This document shows, one piece after another, positions 6,933 to 56,039 of a stretch of DNA of 61,401 bases (positions are counted from its first letter, which is position 1; every line of letters starts with the position of its first letter). This stretch comes from a virus (Duplodnaviria; Caudoviricetes). Location: positions 1-61,401 of the IMG/VR virus record IMGVR_UViG_3300049032_000024. The stretch is one strand, 5' to 3'. The notes beneath the pieces are model-generated. The model made no database searches and was not told the DNA's origin. It worked only from the letters and a program-made list of their open reading frames with translations. A program made the position numbers and the translations under genes.

Positions 6933-7202
6933 GTGGCTGAAAGAGTGCTAGCAGTTCACAAGGTTACAGGGATTCTGAGTTGGGTACTCCCCACCGAGAT
7001 TGAAAACCACGAAGCCCTTGAGCCTGCAACCAAAAAGCAGATAGCAGATGCCCAGACCGCTCGAGAAATCGAAGTCTATGGCGAACCAATCAAGAACGGC
7101 GTGATCCCATTCGGACCTGTTGGCCCATCGCTTGACGGTGAGGAAGACAAGGCTGAAGACGTGAAGCCTGCAACCGCTAAGGACGGTGCCGACAATGGCT
7201 AA
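6933..7202 (+). CDS. Hypothetical protein
   Basis: ORF with RBS AAAGGAG. Confidence 0.6.
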   Translation: MAERVLAVHKVTGILSWVLPTEIENHEALEPATKKQIADAQTAREIEVYGEPIKNGVIPFGPVGPSLDGEEDKAEDVKPATAKDGADNG

Positions 7203-9657: not shown

Positions 9658-9676
9658 TAGCGCTAGCAAAACTCTA

Positions 9677-9713
9677 AAGCCCCTTCTGGCTCAATGCCGG
9701 AAGGGGCTTTTTT
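9677..9713 (+). terminator. Intrinsic terminator
   Basis: AAAGCCCCTTC...GAAGGGGCTTTTTT. Confidence 0.75.
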
Positions 9714-9766
9714 GCGTCAATGATAGACTTGACTAGAATCAGGAACTATGATATAGGACGGTAAGA

Positions 9767-12700
9767 GTGGCTAACGATTTCAACGCCAGTGTTGTCATCA
9801 GCACAAAGGAGTCTGAGGCTGGCATTAGGTCGCTGGACACCGCCGCCAAAGACCTTGACAAGACTCTCCAGAGTCTCCACAAAACCCTTCAAAACAATCA
9901 GGGTGACCTTGATGCTGTAAGCAAGAGCATGAGTGCAATCACTCGTGCGAACGCTGCTCTCATCCGTTCTGAGCAGGACCGCGCCAAGGCCACTGTCCTT
10001 GCTGCCAAGGCTGACGGTCAGATAATTGTCAACCAGTCCAAGCGTCAGAAGTCTGCCAATGACACTGCCATTGCTGAGGCAAAAGCGAACAAGATTCGGC
10101 AGGCCACTCTTGCCAACGGGCTTACCGCGTCTGCCAACCTTACTCGCAAGGACGCTGAGTCTCGTACCCGTATGGCGGGTATCGAAGCAGTCAATCAGCA
10201 GAAGCTAGCCACTGAGACTGTCCGTACCACTACCGCAATTATCAATCAGGGTGCCGCTACCACGCGCGCTGCCAGTGCCACCGAAATGGCTGCAGCACGT
10301 ACCGCTCGGCTCGAGGGTGCTCAGCGGGGGGCTGCTTCCGGCACGCTGGAACTCAATGACTCGCTGTCGAACTCCCGGTATCTGCTGTACGATGTGGGGC
10401 AGACCTACGCGGTGATCGCTGCTGCCATGCAGGTTATCCCTGTGGCAACGGCTGCTGTCGCCATCGCATACGAAAAAGACTTCGCACAGGTCATCCGTAC
10501 CAACGATACTCTGGCCAACAGCACTGGCGGCTTTGCCCAGCTCCGCGATGAGTTGAAGCAGCTCGCTACTGAGATTCCGCTGACCTTCGGTGAGTTCTCT
10601 CAGATCGCTACCATTGGTGGTCAGCTCGGTATCGCCGGTCAGGATATCGAAAGCTTCACTGAGACTGTAGCACGATTCGGCGCTGCGTCCAACGTCTCCA
10701 TTGATGAAGCTGCTACTGCCTTCGGTCGGTTGCAGAACTCTTACGATCCTCAGAAGCTCAACCCTGACTTCTTCAACCAGATCGGTTCCGCCATCGCTTA
10801 CGTTGGTGTGAAGTCTGCGGCCACTGAAGCGGAAATCATCGCGGTCAACAACCAGATTTCTGCTGCCGGTGCCCAGTTCGGATTTGCTGCTGACGAAATC
10901 GTTGGTCTGTCTGGTGCTCTGGCGTCTGTCCGTATCCGTCCTGAACTTGCTCGTGGTGCCTTCCAGCGTATTATGCTGGGGCTCAACCGTGCCGCTGATG
11001 AGGGCGCTGAGTCCTTCCAGAAGTATGGTAAGTACACTGGGCTGGCTGCTGACCAAGCCCTTGCACTCTTCAAGTCCGATCCTTCCAAGTTCTTCCACCA
11101 GTACGTAGGCGGCATCAAGAACGCCATCGCTGAGACTGGTTCTGTCTCCGCTGTGCTTGATGACATTGGAGCCAAGAACGTCTTTGACAAGCAGTTCCTT
11201 TTGGGACTGGCCAACGGCTACAACGTGTTCACGGACTCGCTGCAGAACTCGAACAAGGCTTGGAAGGATGGCAGCTTCCTTACTGAGTCCACCGCTGGTA
11301 TCTACGAGACAGTAGACGCCAAGCTCAAGCGTATTGCCAACGGCTTCAAGAACATCGGTGACTCCATCGGTAAGGCGTCTGTCGGTGAAGGCTCCGGTCT
11401 GGACAAGCTCACTGACTCTGTGCTCGCTGCTACCAGCGCTGTGGATCGCTTCATCAATGCTGCTCCGGGTATTGCTCAGTTCATCAACATTATGATGGGG
11501 CTCGGCTCTGTCATCGGTATCCTGATTGCGTTCAAGGCTGCTCAGGCATTCATGCTTGCCGGTCTGGTTGGCTTCCAGCAGGTGCTTGGTAAGGGTACGC
11601 TTGCTGCGGGTCTGACTGCCAAGGGCATCCTACAGCAGTTGGCAGTTACTATGCTCATGGCCAAGGGTGTCTCCCAGCAGCACGCACAGGCTCTCGTGGT
11701 ACAGTCCGGCGCGCTGCGTGCTATGGGTATGTCTGCTCAGGTTGCAAATGCCCAGCTTGCATCCAGCGCTGGTGGTATGGCAGCGGGTGTTGTTGCCAGC
11801 ACTGATGCCGCTACCAAGAGCACCAACCGCTTGGTAGGTGCCTTCAAGGCTGGTATCGGCATGTTGGGCGGTCCTATCGGTATCTCCGTTATGGCACTGG
11901 GTACGCTGGCCTTCAGCTTCATCCAGACTGCTGAGGAAGCTGCCACTGCCGGTGAAGCTATCGCGCGCGCAATGGATCAGGGAGCTGACGCTGCCACTCG
12001 TGCTTCGGCTGACGCCATTGCGAAAATCAAGGTAGCGTGGCACGATCCTATCGCGCTCGGTAACCTTGACCGCTCGCTGGCTGAGGTTGCTCGTGACGCA
12101 GGTGTACCTTTTGAGAAGCTTGCTGCCGCTGCTGCCAAGGGCCGTGACGCTGGCAAGGAAGTCCTTGCTGTCATGGATCAGATTGCTCGGTCCAAGGGCT
12201 TTGCGGACTTCGCTGCCATGCGTAATGCAGGTGGAGCACATGCCGGTCAGATGGAGTGGCTGAAGAACAAGATCACTGAAATTGGTGAGAAGTCTGCTGT
12301 CACTGGTGAAGACCTCAAGGACGTAAAGACTGCCACTGACGCTTTCGGTGGTGCGGCTGCTGATGCTGGTCCTAACGCTGAAATGTTCGCTAGCGAAATC
12401 GGCGGTGTAGGTGATGAGGCTGAGACTGCTGCTGACAAGATTGACAAGTTCCTTGATGCCGTCTTCGGCATTGTGGATGCTGCCGGGGCTTCCCAGTCTG
12501 CACTTCAGGCTCTCGGTGAAGGTCTGTTCGACTCTCTGGACTTCGGCCCGAACACTGAGGGTGGACGCGCCAACGTAGAGAACTTCAAGGAAGCTCTGCG
12601 GTCTGCGGCTCAGGAACAGCAGTACCTTATTGACTCGACTGGCAAGAGCACACAACAGGCCAGCGCTGACTACATCGCTTTCGTTGATGGCCTTGTGCAG

Positions 12701-44136: not shown

Positions 44137-44847
44137 TTAGTCTACGTCTTCCCAGTAAGGATTAGGTGTCTCTTTGATCTTCCCAGTGTATGTGCCATCG
44201 AGCACTTGTGCAAGTGTGGTTGCACGCACTGCTCGGTTAGTGGGTGTGTCACTCTCAAAGACTTCCTTGTTACCTGACACGTACTCACCAGTGGTGAAGT
44301 CAAAGACTGCTTCCTGTCCTTCCAGTTCAGTATCCAACTGGCCCTTCATCAGGACATAGCACCAGACTGGCTCCTGATTGCCGCGTGTGTCCGCCAGTGC
44401 GTACCGCTGTGTACCTGTGAAGCGGGACCACTGCCACTCAAGGTCACTGACTTCAGCTTCCTGATGCTTACGGTATGCCTCAGTGGTCTGCTTCACACCG
44501 TAGAACAGTCCAAGGTTCTTGGTACCAAGGGCTTGTGCTAGCTGGTAGCCAGTCTTACCGTTGACGTTCATCTCATGGGAGATGGCGTTGTCCAACGCTT
44601 CCTTGCGTGCGGCCTTCTCTACAGCCCAGCGAGCGTCAAATGCACCCTTGACGTACTTGGTACGCTCCATCCCCAGTTCGGCCTTCAGCAGGGCAATCTT
44701 GGCACGTAGCTGGGCCATCTCCACCTGCATGTCAGCGAGTCGCCGCTTCCTTTCGTGGTCTGGGGTACCCATTTCCTTGACACGTGCCTCTTCACGGTCA
44801 GTGATGAAGTTGTTCCAAGACTCGTATGCGTCTTTTAGTTCTTGCAC
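44137..44847 (-). CDS. Hypothetical protein (coiled coil plus HTH-like segment)
   Basis: RBS AGGAG; TGYQLAQALG segment. Confidence 0.65.
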   Translation of the reverse strand: MQELKDAYESWNNFITDREEARVKEMGTPDHERKRRLADMQVEMAQLRAKIALLKAELGMERTKYVKGAFDARWAVEKAARKEALDNAISHEMNVNGKTGYQLAQALGTKNLGLFYGVKQTTEAYRKHQEAEVSDLEWQWSRFTGTQRYALADTRGNQEPVWCYVLMKGQLDTELEGQEAVFDFTTGEYVSGNKEVFESDTPTNRAVRATTLAQVLDGTYTGKIKETPNPYWEDVD

Positions 44848-44941
44848 TGCGTTCTCTCCTAAATAAAAAAGTGGTGTGTACCAGTCACGAGACTAGCACA
44901 CACCACTGAGCTCAATCAATTCTAAAAGACGATGCTCTTCC

Positions 44942-45199
44942 CTACGATTTGATGTGCTCTTTCACGAGGGGGTGTGCATCCTCCAGAAGGTCAACCTCAT
45001 CCCCCCTGAGTGCTGCACCACGCCCCTTGCTGTAGTACAGGTGCGTTGGGATGAGTACGAATACCCATCCGTCTTCCGTCACTTCACGTACATAGCCTGT
45101 TTGCCCAACAACGCGGTACTGAGGTTCTACAGTGGTGTCCTCAGCCACTCCCATGATGTTGGTGATGGTTACCTTAGCTCCAATTTTGAATTTCTCCAT
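44942..45199 (-). CDS. Hypothetical protein
   Basis: FKIGAKV...GQTGYV SH3-like motif. Confidence 0.55.
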   Translation of the reverse strand: MEKFKIGAKVTITNIMGVAEDTTVEPQYRVVGQTGYVREVTEDGWVFVLIPTHLYYSKGRGAALRGDEVDLLEDAHPLVKEHIKS

Positions 45200-45212
45200 G
45201 TCTTTGAAGGTA

Positions 45213-45737
45213 CTACACCCTTGGGTATGTCTGCAACTCACACTGCGGCGAGCAGCCTGTCTTGCTGTGACTGTGCTTACAAAGAGCCCTCTTCTTGCAG
45301 GCTAAGCAGGTCCGTACAGTCTGCCCTGTTGTCTGTACTCTTGTTTCGTATATACCAACGATGGCGAGGTCATGCCCATGCTTGCAGTGAGTAGCTGTTG
45401 CCACGTTGGTACGCCCCTTGTGCTCAGCCTTGGGCTTGCGCGTAGGCTTTCCACCCTTGACCCAGCCGTTGCGGATACCTGCTCTACGCATGTTCTCAGA
45501 CTTGGTTACAGGCTCAAGATGGTCAGGATTCACACAGAGACGTACATGGCACAGATGGTCAAGCTGCAAGCCTTTGGCAATCGGCCCAATCAGTAGCTCC
45601 CACACAGCCCTGTGCGCTGAATGTGTCCTACCTCTGAAGGTCACCTGTCCATAGCCGCAGTTGTTCATGCCTCCGGTCCACAACCAGCAAAAACCTGTAG
45701 GCTCGACACGCTCAAAAATCCTTGTAAAATCATCCAC
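45213..45737 (-). CDS. HNH endonuclease
   Basis: CWLWTG, LDHLCHVRLCVNPDHLE and THCKHGH motifs. Confidence 0.9.
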   Translation of the reverse strand: MDDFTRIFERVEPTGFCWLWTGGMNNCGYGQVTFRGRTHSAHRAVWELLIGPIAKGLQLDHLCHVRLCVNPDHLEPVTKSENMRRAGIRNGWVKGGKPTRKPKAEHKGRTNVATATHCKHGHDLAIVGIYETRVQTTGQTVRTCLACKKRALCKHSHSKTGCSPQCELQTYPRV

Positions 45738-45912
45738 CTAAAAATCCTACCATCCTCCAAAAACTCCCCAAGGCCCCCAGAAAATTTTGCTGCGAGGCTT
45801 CTTTCATCCTCCAGTGAGAATGGTGACGGGCGCGCTGGTCTTGCGTGGTCCTACCAAAACCTCTCCGAGTTAGTCCAATCGGTGGATTAATGAACTGAGG
45901 GCTGACTCTCAC

Positions 45913-46170
45913 TTCTACACGCTGTAGAACTTAGGGTACCCTAACCGAACAATCGTTCTGTTGAAGCTTCAAACAAATTCCCTCGACTGCATATATACAG
46001 CGACACGACTGCATATATGCAGTACCCGGACACGCTACGTTGAAACTTCAACAGTCAATGTCAACAGTCAACGCTAGCGCGTAACAGTTCGACGGAGTAG
46101 CGTCACAGAAAGTTAGGCGTACCTAAAAATTGTTTGCAGGCTGACAATAACCGAACAACTATTCAGTAAA
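45913..46170. promoter_or_regulatory. Dense array of short operator-like palindromes
   Basis: TTCTACA-N3-TGTAGAA; TTAGG-N4-CCTAA x2; GAAC-N4-GTTC; TTGAA-N2-TTCAA x2; ACTGCATATATGCAGT. Confidence 0.65.
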
Positions 46171-46220
46171 TGGGGAAGTATGCGAGAAAACAGAAAGTTT
46201 ACCGTGATGCACCGTTTGTC

Positions 46221-46643
46221 TGTGGATAACCTGTGGAGAACGTCGTTCATTTAGGGGTACAAGTATTTGGTTGTTTGAGCACTTGAAGCGCTTAGAACGG
46301 CATACAGGGCGTTTAGGTCACGATTTATAACAGTTCCCTCGAGCTCTTGACGTAATGCCGATGTGCTGTTATTCGCGTATGCGCGCGTTGGTAATAAGGC
46401 ACGATTCTAGGTTCGGTCACGGTTAGATAACGGTTAGGTGAACAGAACAGAGATTTAGATGCATATGCATCCAACCTGTGGATAACTCTGCAAAAGTGTG
46501 GATAACTTATGCCAAATTGTGGATAACTACCGATGCCGGCGTGGATAACTTTGCTCATTCTGTGGATAACTTTGGCGATTCTGTGGAAAAGTAGCCCTTT
46601 TCTGTGGATAAACCTGTGGAAAATGGCAATATTTGGTGGATAG
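46221..46643 (-). repeat. DnaA-box array (TTATCCACA on the minus strand)
   Basis: Perfect TGTGGATAA at 46221, 46477, 46497, 46518, 46561, 46603; one mismatch at 46232, 46540, 46582, 46615; two at 46635. Confidence 0.9.
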
Positions 46644-46878
46644 GGTTACGCTAAAGACGTGCTAGTCGCGGCGATGGGGTACGGGGGAACCTGTACTTTC
46701 ATCTAGGGGTTAGGCACTTGCTCCCCCGGTAACACCGGGGGAATTGATAGCTAAATAGTGAACGCGGGTAGGGGTATCCGCTCTAGTGCATTCCTAGAGC
46801 GGGTACCCGGTAGAACTAGAGACTTTCATCTAGCAAGGGAAAGAGCCCTTGCTAGTTGTTAGCAACTAGGGAGAGAAC

Positions 46879-47037
46879 ATGAAAACACAACAGGAAATTA
46901 CGGCACGTATTGCTTACTTGAAGCACCAAAAAGAGCAGGCAATAAAAGAAGAGTTGTGGACAGCTACAGCGATATTTCAAGCGCAGATAGAAACGCTTGA
47001 ATGGGTACAGGAAGCAACTACGTTTCATACGTTCTAA
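46879..47037 (+). CDS. Small hypothetical early protein (52 aa)
   Basis: RBS GGGAGAG; MKTQQEITARIAYL... Confidence 0.6.
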   Translation: MKTQQEITARIAYLKHQKEQAIKEELWTATAIFQAQIETLEWVQEATTFHTF

Positions 47038-47089
47038 ATGCGTTTAGCCATTACCGGATACCCGGTAATGGCTATGCACAGTTAGTGCA
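47035..47089 (+). repeat. Structured intergenic RNA repeat, copy 1
   Basis: 13-bp stem plus TGCAC-AGTTA-GTGCA stem. Confidence 0.8.
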
Positions 47090-47110
47090 GTACAGAAAAG
47101 GGGAAGCAAG

Positions 47111-47518
47111 ATGCAAAAAGATGAATGCTCACGGATTGAATGGCTTTCACAGTTTGATGACTACGCCCTAGCTTCAATGGCCAATGGTGGCTACAGGCTT
47201 GAAGACGATTCACTCGAAACAGCTACGGCAGAAGAGCTTGAAGCAGTAAGGCTCTACAGGCTTGAAAGCTTCAATAAATGGGCAGCAAATAATCCGTTTG
47301 TGGAGCTGGAAACAATGGTTCAGGGCGCAACGGTTGAAGGGCTTGTTTACCGGGTATACGGGGGAACATCCCATAGCGAACGTGTAGACGTAGCACTGGA
47401 ATACTCCAGCTATCTCGAGTCTGAAGGTTATGTAATTAGTTGTGATCGCTATGAGGCAACAAACAAAAAAGATGGTGAAGGAAACACTTACACAGAGTTT
47501 CGTTTCACCTGCAGCTAG
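47111..47518 (+). CDS. Hypothetical early protein
   Basis: RBS present; A-rich codon usage. Confidence 0.65.
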   Translation: MQKDECSRIEWLSQFDDYALASMANGGYRLEDDSLETATAEELEAVRLYRLESFNKWAANNPFVELETMVQGATVEGLVYRVYGGTSHSERVDVALEYSSYLESEGYVISCDRYEATNKKDGEGNTYTEFRFTCS

Positions 47519-47554
47519 TACCCGGTAACACCAAACGAAAAGGAAGACAGAACA

Positions 47555-47923
47555 ATGGGACAGACAAAAGCGGAAAAGCTGGCGGAAAAAGCTGCAGCTA
47601 GGGAAGCACTCGTTTCACGTTGGAAGGATGAAATTCTCAAACCTTCCACTCTTCTGGAATTCCGTACGGAGTACGGAAAAGGTGAGACTGATTATGTGGA
47701 AGCTCACTGTTACTACCTTGGAAAAGATGGGAAGCTGCAGCACTTTCCGCTCACTGTGCTTATTGCACAGGCTTGGGGAATGAAATTGAAGCGGACACAA
47801 AGTAAGACGCAAATAGCTGAAGGTGGTGGTGGCCTGTCTAAGAGCTACAAAATTGCAATGATGCTCTTTCAAGTGCTCGACATAGAGCACCGTGAAACAG
47901 ATATCAATTTCACCTATCGCTAA
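47555..47923 (+). CDS. Hypothetical early protein
   Basis: RBS AAAGGAAG. Confidence 0.65.
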   Translation: MGQTKAEKLAEKAAAREALVSRWKDEILKPSTLLEFRTEYGKGETDYVEAHCYYLGKDGKLQHFPLTVLIAQAWGMKLKRTQSKTQIAEGGGGLSKSYKIAMMLFQVLDIEHRETDINFTYR

Positions 47924-47978
47924 AGGCATTTAGTCATTACCCGGATAGTCCGGGTAGTGGCTATGTGCAGTTAGCACA
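47921..47978 (+). repeat. Structured intergenic RNA repeat, copy 2
   Basis: Same two stems with G-U pairs and compensatory changes. Confidence 0.8.
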
Positions 47979-47998
47979 GAACAACAGGAAGGAAAGTC

Positions 47999-48604
47999 AT
48001 GTTTTCGTATGTACCTAATACACATTGGGCGAAAGATGGATCAGAGAGCACTAAGCAGGTAGCGAGCATTGAAGCGCTGTACGACCTGTGTAAGCAAGGG
48101 GAAGTAGCAAGGGTAATAATCCCTATGACGTGGTACGGATACGGCGCGACAGTAATCAGTCTGAGCAATCACAGAAGCATCAAAAAGCACTACGCAGAAA
48201 ACAAATTCCGAGACTACGGAACAGAACTTTCAATGTCTGCCTATCAGTTCAGGAAGTACCCGGAATTCCGCGACATGATTAGGGAACTGCAGGAAGAGTA
48301 CCCGGTATTCAATGAACAGGATTACAGCGAGCTTGAAAGTGAAACTCTGTTGGAATTCCTAGTAGATGAAATTAGCTATGTGCTAATTGAAGATGAAAGC
48401 GGATTGTGGCCTGAAACGTTGTACGAAACAAAGGAAGTAGTAAGACTGATTCTTGAAGGGTATTCAGAAAAGGACTGGAGTACCCGGATCGAATGGTGGG
48501 AATACTGCAGGCTGGACAATGACGGAGCTACGCCCTACAGCGATAAAACAGAAATTGAAGAGCTCGCCAAAATGATTACAGCTAAGCGAGTAGCCACTAA
48601 GTGA
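47999..48604 (+). CDS. Hypothetical acidic early protein
   Basis: YPVFNEQDYSELE motif; RBS present. Confidence 0.7.
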   Translation: MFSYVPNTHWAKDGSESTKQVASIEALYDLCKQGEVARVIIPMTWYGYGATVISLSNHRSIKKHYAENKFRDYGTELSMSAYQFRKYPEFRDMIRELQEEYPVFNEQDYSELESETLLEFLVDEISYVLIEDESGLWPETLYETKEVVRLILEGYSEKDWSTRIEWWEYCRLDNDGATPYSDKTEIEELAKMITAKRVATK

Positions 48605-48954
48605 AATTCCCTATCTTCCCTAGCCTGCAGCAAATACTAGGGCTCTTCCTTTTGATGCTTTTCATCTTCCTACCCGGCTGGCTTAGTCCTCCCTACTAAA
48701 CAAAGGACAAAAAGAATGTTTGCTAGAGCAACACCGTTCAAGTGTGAAGGACATGTCTATGACTCCATAAGCACTGTGTTTGAAGACAGAACGTTTACAG
48801 CTAGGCACTGTAGCTACTGCAGCGAGCACAAAGCAGTTACAGCTATCCGAAAATTCTTCAAGCTGTGAATGGCCTGCAGTTTGCTGCGCTAGTAATCGCT
48901 GCAGCTTGGATATTCCGATACGCGATACACAACAAACTAGAGATTGGAAGCAAG

Positions 48955-49416
48955 ATGGCTAAGCCCTTGAATGAAATTATGGAATTCGATCACATTGTGG
49001 AAGTCCACAAAGATGGGAGCATTACCGATACGGATATGTGCGTAGGGGATAGTGACGCATATTTTGAATTGTCTGTGAATTCTGAAGGTGAGGATGACTT
49101 TTACATGCCTCCGGGATGGGAATTGCTTAGGGGATTCACTGGGCAGTATTCCTACAATGGTCCAGTAATGCATCCCTCAGAATTCATTGGGGGCGGGTTA
49201 GAGCGACACATTAGAGAGACTCCGGGTTACTACGTAGCACTAGTAGTGGAGGGTACAGATAAACATGAGTGGCAGGTATCGCGGTTTACAGGTACTAGGA
49301 CATGTCAGCGTTGCGGACTATTGCCGCAGGATAGCGACGATATGGAAAGTGAATGCAATAGCGATAATCCTGCAGGGTGGGCTGTAGCCTATAAACCGTC
49401 CGCTGAAACTGACTAA
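48955..49416 (+). CDS. Hypothetical early protein
   Basis: GFTGQYSYNGPVMHPSEFIGG motif. Confidence 0.7.
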   Translation: MAKPLNEIMEFDHIVEVHKDGSITDTDMCVGDSDAYFELSVNSEGEDDFYMPPGWELLRGFTGQYSYNGPVMHPSEFIGGGLERHIRETPGYYVALVVEGTDKHEWQVSRFTGTRTCQRCGLLPQDSDDMESECNSDNPAGWAVAYKPSAETD

Positions 49417-49471
49417 ATGCGTTTAGTCATTACTAGGTACTTCCTAGTGGTGGCTATGTGCAATTAGCACA
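49414..49471 (+). repeat. Structured intergenic RNA repeat, copy 3
   Basis: Same two stems with G-U pairs and compensatory changes. Confidence 0.8.
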
Positions 49472-49491
49472 ACAAAGAAAAGGGAGTAATC

Positions 49492-49878
49492 ATGCAGCTT
49501 GGAAAGTTCAGCAACGATAGGGATTCCGCACTCCACTACCTGTGCACTAGTGAATGGAGCAATGAATCTTTTGGTGACGTAGAAAGTCCTACAGGCTATG
49601 TATGGAGGATTAGCAACACGTGGGAGGAGGTCAAGCCCACAAACACGGAATTCAATTCTGTAATTACAGAATGGCTTAGGGCAGAAGTAAGGGAAAATTG
49701 GTTTCAGCTTGAAGCGCTGACAGAAGAGCTTAGGAAGTCTCTAGTAGGGCACTTCCTGCTACAGGAAGACAGCAACGGACTAGTACACGTTAGGGAGTAC
49801 GCAACGGAAAAAGAGCTCTTGAAGGACTTTCAAGCGCTCGAGACTGAACACTTCAATTGGGATTCACAGGGAGAGTAA
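49492..49878 (+). CDS. Hypothetical early protein
   Basis: RBS AAGGGAG. Confidence 0.7.
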   Translation: MQLGKFSNDRDSALHYLCTSEWSNESFGDVESPTGYVWRISNTWEEVKPTNTEFNSVITEWLRAEVRENWFQLEALTEELRKSLVGHFLLQEDSNGLVHVREYATEKELLKDFQALETEHFNWDSQGE

Positions 49879-49883
49879 GCACA

Positions 49884-50486
49884 ATGGAAAAAGAGACAGT
49901 AAAAACTGAAGGCGACTACCGGGCAGTTATTGAACGGGAAGAATACAGCTACGCTCCGGACGGCGACTATCAAGCTGCAGTAATCCGACTGGACTACAGC
50001 GGATACTATGACGCCGACGCTAAAAACTCTGCAGCTAATGAGTTTGAAGACGCCGCTAAACATTTCATGTCCTACTACGGAATGAATAAGGGAATTGACG
50101 TCTTCAAGCGCTATTTGACTCTCTTTCACGGAACACAGGACATTAGGGAATTCCACTACAGCTACTCTCCGGATAGTGCTAGGTATCTTGCTTTTGATTC
50201 TGCAGACATGCGTGAAGAATGGGGAAGCGCTGAAGACGCTACGGACGCCGCTGCAGGTACGGCTGAAGAATGGCAGGCGTACATAGATGGGGATACCTAC
50301 AGCATTGCTGTAGAGCGTCGGATCACCGCTAGCACAGTCTCTTACTTCCAAGGGGAAGAGCTGGGCACAGAAGAGACTGAAGATTGGGAAGAGCTGGCAG
50401 ATACAGTCTGTGGAGGTTTTTATGGTGAAAAATGGGCAAGGGAAGCTGCAGAAGAGCTCTTGAGCCACTACAGCGAAAAGGGCTAG
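49884..50486 (+). CDS. Hypothetical highly acidic early protein
   Basis: WQAYIDGDTY...DTVCGGFYG motif; Asp/Glu-rich. Confidence 0.7.
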   Translation: MEKETVKTEGDYRAVIEREEYSYAPDGDYQAAVIRLDYSGYYDADAKNSAANEFEDAAKHFMSYYGMNKGIDVFKRYLTLFHGTQDIREFHYSYSPDSARYLAFDSADMREEWGSAEDATDAAAGTAEEWQAYIDGDTYSIAVERRITASTVSYFQGEELGTEETEDWEELADTVCGGFYGEKWAREAAEELLSHYSEKG

Positions 50487-50620
50487 AGCATGACTGAACT
50501 AGAGCTACTGGAGCGCTTGACAGTTATCCGCAATGCCTGCAGCGATCCTGTTACGCGGGTAGAGCTTGCAAGGCTGCAGCGTGACCGTTGGGGAGTACAG
50601 GAAAAGGGAGAAAACAACTA

Positions 50621-50887
50621 ATGGCTAACAACGACTACCGGCGCGCGGAACTTTCCAACGTCGATGCAACGGGCGAGTACCCGGCAAAACTGAAGATAGC
50701 TAGTGACGATGGAGATACTAAGTGGCTGGACATTACAGCCACGGAGTTTGAACAGATAAAAGCTGTGTTGCTGGACTACCGGAACGACTGTGCTCATGAG
50801 CAGACACTAGATGACCTCTCAGTCTCTTTTGAGTCTGGAGCAGAGCAGAAGTGCTCTAAGTGTGGGGAGAGCGTCACACGTTGGTAA
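50621..50887 (+). CDS. Hypothetical early protein
   Basis: TKWLDI motif; C-terminal CSKC. Confidence 0.6.
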   Translation: MANNDYRRAELSNVDATGEYPAKLKIASDDGDTKWLDITATEFEQIKAVLLDYRNDCAHEQTLDDLSVSFESGAEQKCSKCGESVTRW

Positions 50888-50913
50888 GAGACAGGAAGTA
50901 GGACTAGACGTAG

Positions 50914-50975
50914 GAAGAGCCCTAGCGGCACCTGAAGGACTGTAAAAGGTCCGGACGGTACTGCTAGGGCTCTTC
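50914..50975 (+). terminator. Long hairpin closing the early operon
   Basis: GAAGAGCCCTAGCGG...CTGCTAGGGCTCTTC. Confidence 0.6.
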
Positions 50976-51332
50976 TGTGTTTGGGGCTCTTACAGGGGCG
51001 TACAGGGCGTAGGAAGAGCTGCAGGGGACAGCCATAGGGGAAGGGCTCTTACAGGCACTCAGAAGGGCAGCTATGGCGTATTCCGGGTAGGGAGAGCTAC
51101 AGGGGAGAAGTTCTACATTTGGGCAGTGTTTGTAACGCATTACATACAGTGTGGTTTATGTAGGTTAGGAAAAGCTTTGTTTCTGTGCGGGATAAATGGG
51201 TTATTGGTGAGATAGGGAAAAGGGAAAGGTTAGGGATAGGGGAGATATATGGAATGCATTACAAAAGCACCAACGCCGAAACGAGCAAAAGCCGCTAAAA
51301 CGCCGTGGTCTAGACCAGTGCTTTTCTGTCTC

Positions 51333-51420
51333 TCTATCTCTATTTATTATTTTTTTTATATTTATATATGTATTGAATTACTGACAGAAAGAAGAAAGGG
51401 AAGAGATAGGCGACTTGTAA
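51333..51420. repeat. AT-rich non-coding element, copy B
   Basis: Homologous to 20993-21080. Confidence 0.7.
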
Positions 51421-51862
51421 CCATGTTTCGCACTCGCGCGTGTCGTGTAACGCATTTCATCCAAATGCACAGGGCTCGAGCACGCTGCAGCGCTAGCCAT
51501 ACGTGCTACAGGGGACAGGACAGGGGATAGGCATGACTAGCGCTGTATGCCTACGTAACGGCCTAACAGACACACAGATAGGCATTCACCCACAGAGAGG
51601 GGTTCAAGGGCTCACAGAGGCACACAGAGGCTTAGAGCGCAGAGAAGGGCTTAGAGCTCGAGAAGCACAGAAGAGCGCACAAAGCAAGGGGAAAGTAAGT
51701 ACCTGAGAGAACAGGCTTTTGTACTGCCCTTTGTACTGTGTATGTAGATGCATATGCATGTATATGGTTCATGCGTATGCATGTATAAGTAATGACTCGA
51801 GTGAGAATCTATGCTGCATAGTCATACAGAGGTGTGGGAGCTTATGCAAGGCTGCAAAAACA

Positions 51863-51878
51863 TGTTTCACGTGAAACT
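51863..51878. promoter_or_regulatory. parS site (chromosomal ParB box)
   Basis: TGTTTCACGTGAAACT: 15/16 match to the universal parS consensus with a perfect 14-bp core. Confidence 0.85.
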
Positions 51879-51988
51879 GTGAAAAAGTACCGACTAAATC
51901 AGTTTCATAATGAGAACCATTCGCATTTTGGGACTCCTTTTGAGAAACAAATATCGCCAACCCGTTTTTTCCCTATAGGCTTTGGGGC

Positions 51989-52177
51989 ATGGATAAAGAA
52001 CTCGTTGACCTCATCAAGGCTGAGATAGCCCACAACATCACTCCTGTCATAGGCTGGCTCCGTAGGGACGCACAGACTGGCAGGGTGGACGACGATCAAG
52101 ACCGCCTGAATGAATACAGGAGGCGCTTACAGAAGGCTGCAGAGGACGTAGCTGTTGCTGTCGAAAATCGCAAGTGA
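51989..52177 (+). CDS. Hypothetical protein (leaderless)
   Basis: TAGGCT 7 nt before ATG; no RBS. Confidence 0.6.
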   Translation: MDKELVDLIKAEIAHNITPVIGWLRRDAQTGRVDDDQDRLNEYRRRLQKAAEDVAVAVENRK

Positions 52178-52219
52178 GAAACATTTAGTCGCTATGCGTT
52201 TTTCCCCTATGCTGTCCTT

Positions 52220-52444
52220 ATGACCAACTACGAGAACCTGCCCATCCTTGACCGCTACGCTGACCTCATTGCCCTTGACACTGGCTCTGCTGTCCTTACC
52301 TCTGACAGCTCGGATACCGTTGTCCTGAAGAGCAGGCTGGGACACTTCACCAATGAAGACGGCGGAGAGGTAGACGCCCGTATACTGTGGGATTACGGTA
52401 CCCACCCTTTCCGGCTTCTGTACGATCCCAAAAACCGATCCTGA
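52220..52444 (+). CDS. Hypothetical protein (leaderless)
   Basis: TATGCT 6 nt before ATG. Confidence 0.6.
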   Translation: MTNYENLPILDRYADLIALDTGSAVLTSDSSDTVVLKSRLGHFTNEDGGEVDARILWDYGTHPFRLLYDPKNRS

Positions 52445-52496
52445 AAAATCCGCCGCAAAATTTTGCCTATAGGCGATTTTCTTGTACGCTTGGGGC

Positions 52497-52778
52497 ATGA
52501 CATACAACGAACGCAGAGAAACTTTGGAAATTTCCAAGGGACAGCTCGAGGTTGAGCCCGTCTTGGATCACGATGGAGAACTGGAAATCTCCACCGGCTG
52601 GGACAGATGTGAAAATGGCCCCCACTACTTCTTCCTGACCGTGGCGGATATGATCGCGCTCCGTGACCACATTGACGCTGTACTGGAAGAGCGCAACAAG
52701 CCCCGCGTGGTGAGCAGGGAAGAAGCAGCGGACTTCGCAAGACGCTGGGATGCTCGAGTGGAAGAGGGCCGCAAGTGA
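52497..52778 (+). CDS. Hypothetical protein (leaderless)
   Basis: TACGCT 6 nt before ATG. Confidence 0.6.
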   Translation: MTYNERRETLEISKGQLEVEPVLDHDGELEISTGWDRCENGPHYFFLTVADMIALRDHIDAVLEERNKPRVVSREEAADFARRWDARVEEGRK

Positions 52779-53119
52779 CCATCGCTGACGCACTCCCCGT
52801 TGTAGGCATTGTGCTGCTCGGTGCTGCACTATTCCTGTTCTTCTACTTCGCTTTCAAGGCGTACACCGTCCCACCCAAGGCTGAGGCACGTCCGGCGTGG
52901 GACGGTAAGCACACGCTACGGGGCATCAAACACGTAGAACACTTCGGCAACCGGCCTGAAGACTACTCCACCGGCTGGCTCTGGGAATGTGCTTGTGGGA
53001 TCGGGAACAAGTACCGCATAGGCTTTGATCTTCCCTACACAGAGGGAGAAGCCATCGCTGAGTACAAAGAGCACCGTGACTTCTACAAGGGTATGCAGGA
53101 AGACGGCTCGAGCCTGTGA
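52775..53119 (+). CDS. Membrane-anchored hypothetical protein
   Basis: N-terminal TM segment; WECACG motif. Confidence 0.6.
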   Translation: MTIADALPVVGIVLLGAALFLFFYFAFKAYTVPPKAEARPAWDGKHTLRGIKHVEHFGNRPEDYSTGWLWECACGIGNKYRIGFDLPYTEGEAIAEYKEHRDFYKGMQEDGSSL

Positions 53120-53349
53120 GCGGTACCAAGAGCAGTGGCAGGAAGCTCTCACCAGAGCGCAAGCAGTTGTTGGACAACGCTGTGGCTGATGGCTGGCCTA
53201 TCCGCCAAATCATCAGCACATACGGCATTGGTACGTCCACAATCAAGAAGCACTACCCTGACTACAGAGGTATGACGGATTCCCATGAGTCCGGCAAAAT
53301 GAGCTGGCAGAACCAGCATGTGCTGCGGGATTTGAAGTTGACAGCCTAA
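53116..53349 (+). CDS. Small HTH protein
   Basis: DGWPIRQIISTYGIGTSTIKKHYP. Confidence 0.65.
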   Translation: MSGTKSSGRKLSPERKQLLDNAVADGWPIRQIISTYGIGTSTIKKHYPDYRGMTDSHESGKMSWQNQHVLRDLKLTA

Positions 53350-53409
53350 TTCCAGCCGTGTAGTTTTGAGTTATTGCTCCACTCAGGGAGCACAAAGTAA
53401 AGGAAACCA

Positions 53410-53598
53410 TTGAACATCTTTATCTTGGCAGGAGCCATCATCACCGCGCTTGTAGCGGTTTTCTACGGGGTACGTCTTATCTCCGTGGCCTTCGGTAAGC
53501 AGCAGTTTGCAGGTGAGTGGGGAGCATTCACCGCTATGCTGCTCGTTGCAGTAGGCGCGTCCGTCTCGTACTGGCTCTTCAGCCTCATCATCAAGTAA
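53410..53598 (+). CDS. Small membrane protein
   Basis: Two TM segments; RBS AAAGGA. Confidence 0.6.
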   Translation: MNIFILAGAIITALVAVFYGVRLISVAFGKQQFAGEWGAFTAMLLVAVGASVSYWLFSLIIK

Positions 53599-53607
53599 GG
53601 CAGACCA

Positions 53608-53943
53608 TTGAGCACTCACACACTCGTAATCCCTCCCGCAGAACACGGTGAGGAAGACTTCGCCTACGCTGAGCAGCTTGTCATTGATGAGGGCGGCATT
53701 GACCTGAAGTCCGGTGGAGAAACGGTCATCAGCGCCTCTTTCGACAAGCTTGACCCCTTCCAGCTCGCCTACGAGGTTCTTCCTGAATCCTTCTCCTTCC
53801 CCACACCACAGGACTCCTTGGAGTGGGAAGAGTTTGTGCAGACTGGAGCACACAACACTGAGAACATCAGCGATGAAGACCTTGAACTGGCCGCGCGGGG
53901 ATTCCTGACCATGCTGGCAATCCGTGGAGGGTACACCAAGTGA
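53608..53943 (+). CDS. Hypothetical acidic protein
   Basis: ORF with phage-like codon usage. Confidence 0.6.
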   Translation: MSTHTLVIPPAEHGEEDFAYAEQLVIDEGGIDLKSGGETVISASFDKLDPFQLAYEVLPESFSFPTPQDSLEWEEFVQTGAHNTENISDEDLELAARGFLTMLAIRGGYTK

Positions 53944-54039
53944 AATCCCTCTTCTACAACGCCATGTACCAGCTCTGTGACTTCATCATGTGGGCCAGAA
54001 TCAATGACCGTGAACACTACGCAAGATGGTGGGAAGCAA

Positions 54040-54303
54040 GTGAGTATTACCGCCGCAAGCGGGACGCTGCCTAGCAAGTACGTCCGCAACCCTCGCGGGG
54101 GCAGACCTTTGATGAATCCAGCGTATGTGGCTCTCTGGGAGTCCTACTTGGATGAAGGCTACTCCGGTAAGGCTGTTGCTGAACTGTTCGGTGTTATGAA
54201 GCACACGGTCTACAGGTACTACCCTGACAAGGTGTGGACCAGCAAGCAGGCTTCTGCACACGGCAAACTAGTGCGGAAACTCAACGAACTGAGCATGTGC
54301 TAG
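54040..54303 (+). CDS. Small HTH protein
   Basis: EGYSGKAVAELFGVMKHTVYRYYP; resembles the 53116 gene. Confidence 0.65.
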   Translation: MSITAASGTLPSKYVRNPRGGRPLMNPAYVALWESYLDEGYSGKAVAELFGVMKHTVYRYYPDKVWTSKQASAHGKLVRKLNELSMC

Positions 54304-54378
54304 AGTAGTTTCAGGGTCTGGGGCACACCCAAGAGGTCAAGTAATTTCTTAGGAAAAACGCTCAAAAGTGCCCCACTT

Positions 54379-54452
54379 GTGGGTGTAGCTCAATTGGTTA
54401 GAGTGCCGGTTTTGGGAACCGGAAGTTGCAGGTTCAAGTCCTGTCTCCCGCA
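54379..54452 (+). tRNA. tRNA-Pro(UGG)
   Basis: Cloverleaf; CCGGT-TTTGGGA-ACCGG anticodon arm; GGTTCAAGTCC T arm; one T-T mismatch in the acceptor stem. Confidence 0.85.
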
Positions 54453-54535
54453 CGAAGTCGATATGGACGTGACGACTTCTAATAAAACTCGATCCGCGTC
54501 ATTTGTTGGGGTTTGACGGTAACTAACCCCTTCGG

Positions 54536-54608
54536 TGGGAGTTAGCTCAGATGGCAGAGCAGCGCACTGTTAATGCGCGGGTCACAGGTTCGAGCCCTGT
54601 ACTCCCAG
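54536..54608 (+). tRNA. tRNA-Asn(GUU)
   Basis: TGGGAGT/ACTCCCA acceptor stem; GCGCA-CTGTTAA-TGCGC anticodon arm; GGTTCGAGCCC T arm. Confidence 0.92.
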
Positions 54609-54677
54609 CAAGAGCAGCATACGGGCGGAACCCCAAGACCGAGGCCGCTGTGATGGCTCTTGGTGGCGACCTAATAC

Positions 54678-54740
54678 GCGCAAAAAAGCCCCTCAAAGGC
54701 ACCGGCTACAAACTGGGACGCTGAGAGGGGCTTTTTTGCG
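54678..54740 (+). terminator. Terminator-like hairpin after the tRNA cluster
   Basis: CGCAAAAAAGCCCCTC...GAGGGGCTTTTTTGCG. Confidence 0.7.
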
Positions 54741-54782
54741 TCTGTGATAGTTTTGTGGTAAGGACCGCAAACAGGAAGCACA

Positions 54783-55310
54783 ATGACAGACGAAATTCAA
54801 GGCAATATGTCATTCCTCACCAAAAAGGTGGTGGACGCCCGAGTAAGAGGCGAAACCATTGAGGAAGCAGCCGCAAATATCGGTATCACCGTCGAAGAGG
54901 CGGTTGAGGCGTGGCAGCAGTACGTTTCCAGCCGCACTGTCATGCCCAAGGAAGAGCAGTTTGTGCTGCACCTTCTGCGGCTCGAAAACCTGCTCACGCG
55001 GGTCAATCTGAAGCTCGAGAACAGCCAGTTCGTTGAAGACTTTGAGGTTGTCCTGAAGCTTTTGGACCGCGTTGAAGCCCTCCAGAATCTCAACCTCTCG
55101 CGCAAGGAAGTGGCTGAGCAGGAAGCAGACAAGCTCCACCGGCTACAGGCAGAACAGGTGCTTGGCATTCTGGAAATGTCACGGCTGATGATGAGGGGCA
55201 TGATCGAAGAAGCTTTCGAGCAGCGCACTCTCAAGGCTGCAAAGGCAGCACTCCTGACCGATCTGGGGGAGTACACCAACAAAGCTCTTGAAAGGCTGGA
55301 AACCGAGTGA
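54783..55310 (+). CDS. Putative terminase small subunit
   Basis: N-terminal HTH plus helical domain; upstream of the large terminase. Confidence 0.55.
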   Translation: MTDEIQGNMSFLTKKVVDARVRGETIEEAAANIGITVEEAVEAWQQYVSSRTVMPKEEQFVLHLLRLENLLTRVNLKLENSQFVEDFEVVLKLLDRVEALQNLNLSRKEVAEQEADKLHRLQAEQVLGILEMSRLMMRGMIEEAFEQRTLKAAKAALLTDLGEYTNKALERLETE

Positions 55311-55528
55311 CCAAGGAACAAGAACTCTGTGCTCTGCTTGATCTGACGTTCGACAACTACCCCGAACGCCCGGATTTCGCCGCGATTCGGGAGCTGGCCT
55401 TTGTGTCGAAGCACTCGAGCTGGCTTATCACAGAGCTGCTAAAAGCCATGTTCCTGTACGGGGAAGACCCCTCTGCCTTTGATGAATACCTGTGGGCTAT
55501 GACCAATAAGGTAGACTCTATGGAGTAA
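55307..55528 (+). CDS. Hypothetical protein
   Basis: 4-bp overlap with the upstream gene. Confidence 0.55.
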   Translation: MTKEQELCALLDLTFDNYPERPDFAAIRELAFVSKHSSWLITELLKAMFLYGEDPSAFDEYLWAMTNKVDSME

Positions 55529-55547
55529 ATACTATAGAGAAGGTGTA

Positions 55548-56039
55548 ATGGGAGCCCCACGTAAGACACTTGCAGACCATCTGGCACGGCTGGACAGGTC
55601 TGACCCTGACGCTTGTTGGATATGGCCTCTGTCAGACAATGGTGATGGATATGGTCAGCTCACTGAGAACCGCGTAGCACACAGGGCGCATAAGTATTTC
55701 TATGAACGGCTGGTTGGTCCGGTACCTGAAGGTGCCATTCTGGACCACATGTGCCACGATCCAAACCTCTGTGCTGGCCGTAAGACCTGTATTCACCGAA
55801 AGTGCTGCAATCCTAAGCACCTGAAAGTGGCTACTCACAGGGAGAACCTGTTGAGAGGTAACACTTTGGCAGCAGGAAACAGTGTCAAAGAGGTCTGCGT
55901 CAACGGGCACGAGTTTACTCCCGAAAACACCTTCCACCGTAGGGGCGCAAGAGAGTGCCGTGAGTGTATGCGCCAACGCGCAAGGGATTCATACTGGAAG
56001 AAGAAAAATGAGGGTACTCAGCCAAGCTGTAGTAGCTAA
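55548..56039 (+). CDS. HNH endonuclease
   Basis: CWIW, LDHMCH...CCNPKHL and CVNGHEF motifs. Confidence 0.85.
   Translation: MGAPRKTLADHLARLDRSDPDACWIWPLSDNGDGYGQLTENRVAHRAHKYFYERLVGPVPEGAILDHMCHDPNLCAGRKTCIHRKCCNPKHLKVATHRENLLRGNTLAAGNSVKEVCVNGHEFTPENTFHRRGARECRECMRQRARDSYWKKKNEGTQPSCSS

Follow-up and report, generated by a model that had tools for sequence, protein, structure and literature searches.

The 61,401-base IMG/VR record IMGVR_UViG_3300049032_000024, analysed here over its whole length (the window), carries in its first rightward operon three copies of an RNA element of about 60 nucleotides (nt), all on the plus strand and all in intergenic gaps of that one operon. We read these elements as cis-acting structures in the polycistronic mRNA of the operon. 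They form a real, conserved and strand-specific RNA family that is new to the libraries searched and has an unusual alternative fold involving the upstream stop codon, and they belong to a known general kind, the structured intercistronic signals of phage operons. Of their possible functions, we tentatively favour that of a double-strand RNA processing and stabilising site, by analogy with the RNase III sites of the T7 early region, which we regard as possible rather than probable.

Each element begins with CTAA, in which TAA is the stop codon of the upstream open reading frame (ORF). After 7 nt there follow stem 1, of 13-15 base pairs (bp), and, abutting it, a 5-bp stem 2 with an ARUUA loop (hairpin 2). 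The next ATG lies 20-21 nt past stem 2, behind a purine-rich Shine-Dalgarno stretch. The initial annotation of this DNA had placed three elements here, each running from an upstream TAA to about 20 nt before the next ATG, and both their coordinates and their anatomy were confirmed. The features are as follows.

46879..50887, plus strand: element-bearing operon, ten ORFs of 43-201 amino acids
46816..46869, plus strand: related leader hairpin, a CUAG...CUAG-based rod abutting the GGAGAG Shine-Dalgarno sequence and the ATG (46879) of the first gene
47034..47089, plus strand: element copy 1; CUAA, with TAA at 47035-47037 as the stop of a 52-amino-acid ORF, and a 7-nt spacer
47045-47057/47062-47074, plus strand: stem 1 of copy 1, 13 bp, loop AUAC
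47075-47089, plus strand: stem 2 of copy 1, UGCAC AGUUA GUGCA
47090..47113, plus strand: leader after copy 1, purine-rich, with the Shine-Dalgarno-like AAAGGGG and ATG 47111 of a 135-amino-acid ORF
47920..47978, plus strand: element copy 2; CUAA, with TAA at 47921-47923 as the stop of a 122-amino-acid ORF; next ATG at 47999
47931-47945/47949-47963, plus strand: stem 1 of copy 2, 15 bp, two U-G pairs
47964-47978, plus strand: stem 2 of copy 2, UGUGC AGUUA GCACA
49413..49471, plus strand: element copy 3; CUAA, with TAA at 49414-49416 as the stop of a 153-amino-acid ORF; next ATG at 49492
49424-49437/49443-49456, plus strand: stem 1 of copy 3, 14 bp, three U-G pairs
49457-49471, plus strand: stem 2 of copy 3, UGUGC AAUUA GCACA

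In copy 1, the 21 nt that separate stem 2 from ATG 47111 (leader 47090..47113) are unpaired in the predicted folds, and the predicted minimum-free-energy fold of copy 2 is a single long rod. The leader hairpin at 46816-46869 was a weak model match (15.1 bits, E-value 0.2). No ORF ends at its CUAG, and a like rod, also without an ORF end, precedes the first gene of G007, an uncultured relative of this phage. This leader hairpin, the homologues in other phages and the complementarity of the upstream flank to loop 2, both described below, go beyond the initial annotation.

The plus strand of each copy folded with z-scores of -4.7 to -5.9. The minus strand of copies 2 and 3 folded 9-10 kcal/mol worse, because their U-G pairs turn into A-C mismatches. 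A 25-nt pattern describing the 3' half of the element had 3 matches in the window against 0.00 expected, and a covariance model (R1), run over the whole genome with filters off, returned exactly the three copies and weaker reverse-strand echoes. Over the 19 pairs, 98.2% of the cells were paired in the three copies, with four double-sided changes and three U-G wobble changes; this agrees with the earlier observation that stem 1 varies by wobbles and compensation and that stem 2 switches from TGCAC/GTGCA to TGTGC/GCACA. The proposal of a new cis-acting RNA motif held as far as the libraries go. At gathering scores, Rfam 15 matched only two tRNAs in the whole window, and at E-values up to 10 it gave four weak matches in 46600-49700, none of them on an element.

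The covariance-model search of phages that had been suggested was carried out and yielded homologues in phages of both Arthrobacter and Clavibacter, as well as in an uncultured relative. Arthrobacter phage Amigo had two matches (53810-53871 and 54726-54796), the first beginning at the stop of gp84 and the second at that of gp85, each with 27-30 nt left to the following start. As in the window, the operon that holds them is the first to run rightward beyond about 1 kb of non-coding DNA, and it diverges from the replication genes. With a widened model (R2), pairs of matches were also found in Arthrobacter phages Anansi, Amavida and Molivia, and Clavibacter phage CMP1 matched on its minus strand at 54176-54239 and 55227-55288. 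The CMP1 elements follow genes 70, 69 and 66, in the first intergenic gaps of an operon diverging from the replication genes. The uncultured relative G005 (78% portal identity) was the only one to match R2 among 49 IMG/VR relatives, which had been found with a portal alignment and are mostly fragments (6 rated at least 90% complete, of which 1 matched). In G007 (74% portal identity) and in the relative G023, only divergent rod-shaped versions were found, in which the rod is kept and hairpin 2 is lost; these came from a scanner for CUAR...YUAG rods that is unspecific alone (127 matches against 322 in reversed-sequence controls) and was used only with ORF context.

The element family is thus real but patchy across relatives, since only 1 of the 6 near-complete relatives matched, G007 and G023 have divergent rods only, and a third model built from 12 copies (R3) added no matches among the 49 IMG/VR relatives. 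R3 also found none in five further genomes (CN1A, Kela, Lupine, Nonagon and LuckyBarnes), neither R2 nor R3 found an element in Stenotrophomonas phage Jojan60, and nothing came from the complete relatives G028, G046 and G049. Copy number differs even among close relatives, with 3 in the window, 2 in G005 and 1 in G007. Megablast of 46000-50000 against the phage collection gave no match, the exact 21-nt hairpin-2 pattern gave none in viral contigs, and locus searches with single proteins (the 128-amino-acid ORF and the terminase) found no relatives. A loose stem-1 pattern, run over three public collections, gave at least 318 loci (those listed from the metagenome and genome collections, together with the 79 matches of a viral scan), and none of the 318 listed carried the hairpin-2 signature; the pattern is too permissive and the loci are unrelated hairpins.

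The relatives offered some further observations on the surroundings of the elements. In CMP1 (record positions 54151-55536, minus strand; locus L453), four consecutive gaps each hold a long hairpin and then a repeated leader (UUCAAUCCA ... UUAGGGAAU ... AUG). RNAfold predicted pairing in this repeated leader that partly closes the Shine-Dalgarno sequence, and the rod in the gap between genes 68 and 67 is built on another base, CCGAACG/CGUUCGG. Amigo, Amavida and Molivia share a leader common to both of their elements, CACCUAAC (GCCUAA in Molivia), followed by ..AGGA.. and ATG (9864-9900 and 10798-10830 of Amigo locus L326); the first part of the CACCUAAC leader resembles the 3' end of 16S rRNA. 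In the leader region of G007 (minus strand, about 10385-10350), 17 nt are identical to the 5' arm and loop start of copy 3 (TAGTCATTACTAGGTAC), a shared stretch that hints at recombination between these elements.

Selection on RNA structure, already proposed from the three window copies, was strongly supported, and more so once the homologues were included. In an alignment of 12 copies from 6 sources (A6; the window phage, one uncultured relative, Amigo, Amavida, Molivia and CMP1), 98.7% of the cells of the whole structure were paired and 17 of the 19 pairs showed double-sided changes, counts that overstate the number of independent events because the alignment was fitted to the two-hairpin structure and its sequences are related. 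Stem 1 had no invariant pair: 98.2% of its cells were paired and all 14 of its pairs changed on both sides. Hairpin 2 was paired throughout (100%), with double-sided changes in 3 of its 5 pairs. None of 500 shuffles reached the observed values, and controls in which the strands were slid paired at 33-43%. The stem 1 sequence is unrecognisable between the window phage, Amigo copy 2 and CMP1, with its pairing retained. The letters that never vary are the UU preceding stem 1, the UG following it and the A.UUAG...CA of hairpin 2. Over 17 rods, 43 G-U pairs were counted against 9 A-C mismatches (binomial p = 2e-6), which indicates that it is the transcribed strand that folds.

A second fold became apparent from the complementarity between the flank that holds the stop codon (CUAR) and loop 2 (YUAG). 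In Amigo, Molivia and CMP1 copy 2, the flank reads CUAAUU, and loop 2 together with its closing base reads AAUUAG, the reverse complement of that flank. Each element can accordingly be drawn either as a single irregular rod of 20-26 pairs or with stem 1 and, abutting it, the 15-nt hairpin 2; the rod is 0.2-5 kcal/mol more stable than the two-hairpin form. From its base outwards, the rod consists of CUAR/YUAG, partly paired 7-nt segments with the invariant UU...UG, and stem 1. When this fold was imposed as a constraint on 16 elements and 2 leader hairpins, it gave 18-26 pairs and -23 to -34 kcal/mol. Nine flank-to-loop-2 pairs evaluated on A6, which was not fitted to that helix, were 85.8% paired, against 23-42% in slid controls. 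Moreover, the stop type and the distal tetramer change together: most copies combine UAA with UUAG, and a UAG/CUAG type occurs in G005 copy 1 (found by the model alone), CMP1 copy 3 and G023. Within CMP1, copy 1 has CUAACU/AGUUAG and copy 2 has CUAAUU/AAUUAG. These three sets of changes, in G005 copy 1, between CMP1 copies 1 and 2, and in CMP1 copy 3 and G023, provide independent support for the flank-to-loop-2 helix. In window copies 2 and 3 there is an extra GCAU or GCGU that pairs with GUGC. We take the two folds to be alternatives, and not a pseudoknot, because the strand UGNNNARUUAG is common to both and no linker is left. An H-type pseudoknot of the flank with loop 2 was also considered; judged from the geometry, it would leave zero nucleotides to connect the loop strand with the 3' arm of hairpin 2, and it was rejected.

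From these structures, together with their strand, conservation and position, we infer cleavage, the enzyme responsible and a stabilising effect as follows. The rod would be cut by a double-strand-specific endoribonuclease, host RNase III being the obvious candidate, and the cistrons would thereby be separated, in the manner of the T7 early-region sites and those of SP82/SPO1. Stem 1 would stay on the upstream mRNA as a 3' barrier to exonucleases, and the downstream mRNA could refold hairpin 2 at or near its new 5' end and would thereby be shielded from 5'-end-dependent decay. RNase III needs double-stranded RNA of about two helical turns, and it cuts the early mRNAs of T7 and SP82 at related intercistronic hairpins. 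The RNase III reading gains some weight because each element can fold as a 20-26 bp rod, an irregular duplex of about 20 bp or more, as that enzyme would require. The three copies and the leader hairpin occupy 46816-49471, all on the plus strand and between ORFs, with the same layout in Amigo and CMP1. The leader rod, which has no upstream ORF, fits a processing signal better than a termination sensor.

The T7 early sites (R0.3 to R1.3) and those of SP82/SPO1 are likewise several related irregular hairpins of about 50-60 nt, placed in the leader and the successive gaps of one operon, with about two helical turns of double-stranded RNA and internal loops. They differ from the elements in sequence, to which they show no similarity, and in host phylum, and cleavage at our elements is a prediction; the elements also have the mutually exclusive hairpin-2 fold, the invariant letters and the upstream stop in the base of the rod. 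Like intercistronic stabiliser hairpins and REP repeats, the elements place a stable hairpin right after a stop, which could block 3'-to-5' exonucleases and set cistron levels. Unlike these, they are phage-borne, confined to one operon and syntenic across genera, and they have a second conserved hairpin and flank-to-loop complementarity.

Several observations weigh against a rod that serves as a nuclease substrate. The invariant letters of hairpin 2 (UG..ARUUAG..CA) suggest a sequence-specific binding site more than an RNase III substrate. Conservation is higher in hairpin 2 than midway along the rod, and the columns shared by the two folds (56-58) pair with the 3' arm in 36 of 36 cases and with the flank in 26 of 36. 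The window's three copies keep only CUAA/UUAG (4 bp) of the base helix, and the covariation of the flank helix is weak, its score being reached by 20 of 500 shuffles and its number of double-change pairs by 62 of 500. The fitting of A6 to the two-hairpin structure, mentioned above, belongs here as well.

We considered the possibility that the element is a bistable switch operated by ribosomes. A ribosome terminating at the stop would melt the base of the rod and lower stem 1 and free UGNNNARUUAG to form hairpin 2, so that translation of one cistron resets the RNA for the next, by coupling or licensing. In 14 of the 16 elements (11 of about 13 after orthologous positions are collapsed), the base UAR is exactly the stop of an ORF of 40 codons or more, stem 1 begins 7-8 nt past the stop throughout, the two folds exclude each other and have nearly equal energies, and the stop-codon type covaries with loop 2. 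Yet neither predicted fold of the window copies pairs the Shine-Dalgarno sequence or the ATG, which leaves no obvious translational output, and there are leader rods with no upstream ORF. In addition, the annotated stops of CMP1 genes 69 and 70 are offset from the base UAR (9 nt before it and 4 nt after it, respectively), hairpin 2 is absent from G007 and G023, and the coincidence with stops may partly reflect compact ORFs meeting a stop-rich flank. On balance, we consider the switch unlikely, though it deserves attention. A more specific version, in which the stop is held by the loop of hairpin 2 and the terminating ribosome flips the rod to the two-hairpin form displaying ARUUA, appears rather unlikely to us. 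If it were true, the flip would determine what becomes of the next cistron (its processing, its binding by a protein or its initiation) and would represent a new coupling of successive genes in the operons of Actinobacteria phages.

The concentration of invariant letters in hairpin 2 and the UU...UG junction, across phages with wholly different stem 1 sequences, raises another possibility, namely that hairpin 2 is the site of a sequence-specific protein, acting in antitermination like lambda boxB/N or as a repressor or activator of translation of the next gene, with stem 1 as a scaffold or pause hairpin. The complete pairing of hairpin 2 and the double-sided change of all 3 of its variable pairs fit this proposal, as do its size (15 nt, 5 bp and a 5-nt loop) and its place after the operon's first gene, which are reminiscent of nutR. 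The lambda nut site consists of boxA and a boxB hairpin, with a 5-bp stem and a pentaloop, and is used by an N-type protein; the put RNAs of HK022 are two abutting cis-acting stem-loops. The elements share with nut a short hairpin, made of a 5-bp stem and a pentaloop whose sequence is fixed, downstream of an operon's first gene, and with put the abutting arrangement of two stem-loops. However, the loop ARUUA is not GNRA-like as in boxB, there are two to four copies per operon and not one, no boxA-like block is common to all copies (upstream, all share only UU), Rfam gave no match, family matches pointed to no N-like protein and to no candidate binder among the 10 operon proteins, and hairpin 2 is missing from G007 and G023, where the rod persists. 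We therefore hold a protein site, too, to be a rather doubtful explanation.

Processing and stabilisation of mRNA also had to be weighed against roles at the level of DNA, such as a replication priming signal, a recombination boundary shuffling gene cassettes, or a selfish MITE/REP-like repeat favouring stop codons. Ten DnaA-box-like sites form a run at a distance of 0.4-3 kb from the elements, the window copies are more alike than orthologous copies in relatives and vary in number, suggesting duplication or gene conversion, and the fragment of the copy-3 stem-1 arm recurs in the G007 leader. This class of explanation is nevertheless disfavoured, and we judge it quite improbable, because of the strand asymmetry seen in the G-U excess, the confinement of the 2-4 copies to one operon and one orientation, their synteny across genera (Amigo, Molivia, Amavida and CMP1) and their fixed spacing to the next Shine-Dalgarno sequence and ATG. 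The hairpin-2 signature was carried by 0 of the 318 loci among the matches listed in the loose stem-1 scans. As regards MITE/REP repeats in particular, we found 3 copies in a single operon, syntenic in relatives, and no flanking direct repeat or target duplication visible at the element ends. Plain terminators or attenuators that grade expression along the operon might be expected from the strong hairpin right after the stop in each element. Terminators are unlikely, however, because no U run follows stem 1 (UGYRCA follows) or stem 2 (a purine-rich stretch follows), a terminator scan of 44500-56000 listed none of the three sites, and canonical terminators with a hairpin and a U-run are used in the same genomes (9667-9726 in the window, near 7190 in G007, and a terminator-like sequence at 50916-50985 of the window); furthermore, the next gene begins 20 nt on, with its own Shine-Dalgarno sequence. 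We give such graded termination very little chance.

Three other kinds of element were rejected. An integron attC site needs GTT in its core site, where most copies read AATTAG; for a readthrough or frameshift signal, the reading frame stays open for only 12-17 codons past the stop; and for a tRNA-like punctuation mark, hairpin 2 has a 5-nt loop.

The nearest described feature of actinophages is the ESAS with SAS of the Cluster K mycobacteriophages (Pope et al. 2011, PMC3203893). According to that paper, SAS occurs in 11-19 copies per Cluster K genome, about half of them with ESAS; departures from complementarity in the two ESAS repeats do not support pairing of ESAS as RNA, and the authors favour DNA-binding sites. 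The function of ESAS and SAS is still described as open in a later paper (PMC12699233). The elements are like ESAS/SAS in being specific to actinobacteriophages, in combining imperfect inverted repeats and a variable spacer just ahead of the ribosome-binding region in some of the non-structural genes, and in a consensus that varies between phage subgroups. The geometry is also like that of ESAS, with arms of 13-15 bp and spacers of 3-5 nt, ending 35-36 nt before the ATG. They differ from the ESAS as described there in that 17 of 19 pairs covary and in that only 2-4 copies are present. The 13-nt SAS consensus is absent from the window phage: allowing up to 3 mismatches, it matched 15 times where 14.7 were expected, never at a start codon and never before the three ATGs. 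A term search of the main text of the Arthrobacter phage paper (PMC5513430) gave no sign of the elements, and they do not appear in its Cluster AQ section.

The element family spans Arthrobacter and Clavibacter phages whose portals are only about 31-52% identical to that of the window phage, and it keeps the same operon position in each. At the RNA level, hardly any expression signals of actinobacteriophages are known. Amigo, grown on Arthrobacter sp. ATCC 21022, offers a culturable system for the cutting, stabilising or coupling of first-operon messages. The alternative folds and the stop codon inside a helix raise a possible translation-sensing mechanism, and if the elements were plain RNase III processing sites, they would be useful as insulator parts in expression constructs for Actinobacteria.

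The source virus is an actinobacterial phage. The window is the whole IMG/VR record (CheckV 100% complete; G+C 54%), and its large proteins matched tape measure protein, tail proteins, primase, helicase, RNA ligase, terminase, portal and head protease. Portal identity was about 52% to Arthrobacter phage Amigo and about 31% to Clavibacter phage CMP1. The replication genes form a long minus-strand block ending near 45400, after which comes about 1 kb of non-coding DNA. In this region between divergent operons lie ten DnaA-box-like sites (TGTGGAWAA, the DnaA-box consensus, with 0-1 mismatch), at 46221-46623 and all on the plus strand, and like runs are present at the matching place in the relatives G005 and G007. 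The DnaA-box-rich stretch at 46221-46623 is probably the replication origin of the phage, to judge from these sites. The label 'early genes' given to the neighbours of the elements in the initial annotation goes beyond the evidence, which gives the first rightward operon, beside the DnaA-box-rich non-coding region and diverging from the replication genes. ORFs of the operon and of the genome were taken from a crude ORF caller made for this analysis; in that gene set, 24 of 66 stop codons are TAA. Eight of 10 operon proteins tested had no family matches or weak ones, and one matches phrog_1587, of unknown function.

Some minor features of the region were also recorded. The non-coding DNA contains GACTGCATATATRCAG as two direct copies (45985-46025), which may be iterons or operators, and a different direct-repeat pair is found at the matching place in G005. 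The motif TACCSGG occurs 35 times in the genome against 7.8 expected, with 19 of the 35 inside 46023-51089, and is frequently seen as the palindrome TACCSGGTA (46804, 47059 in the loop of copy 1, 47348, the gap 47518-47555, and 48299); UACCGG...CCGGUA is likewise found at the top of stem 1 in several phages. The motif may be recognised by a regulator or a methylase. Immediately downstream of the operon's last ORF, and ahead of a gap of 361 bases, a hairpin (AGAGCCCUAGC...GCUAGGGCUCU) followed by a U-rich run (50916-50985) is likely the terminator of the element operon. Finally, genes for tRNA-Pro(TGG) and tRNA-Asn(GTT) lie at 54379-54609, between the small-gene operons and the terminase, and a tRNA cluster is present at the matching position in Amigo.

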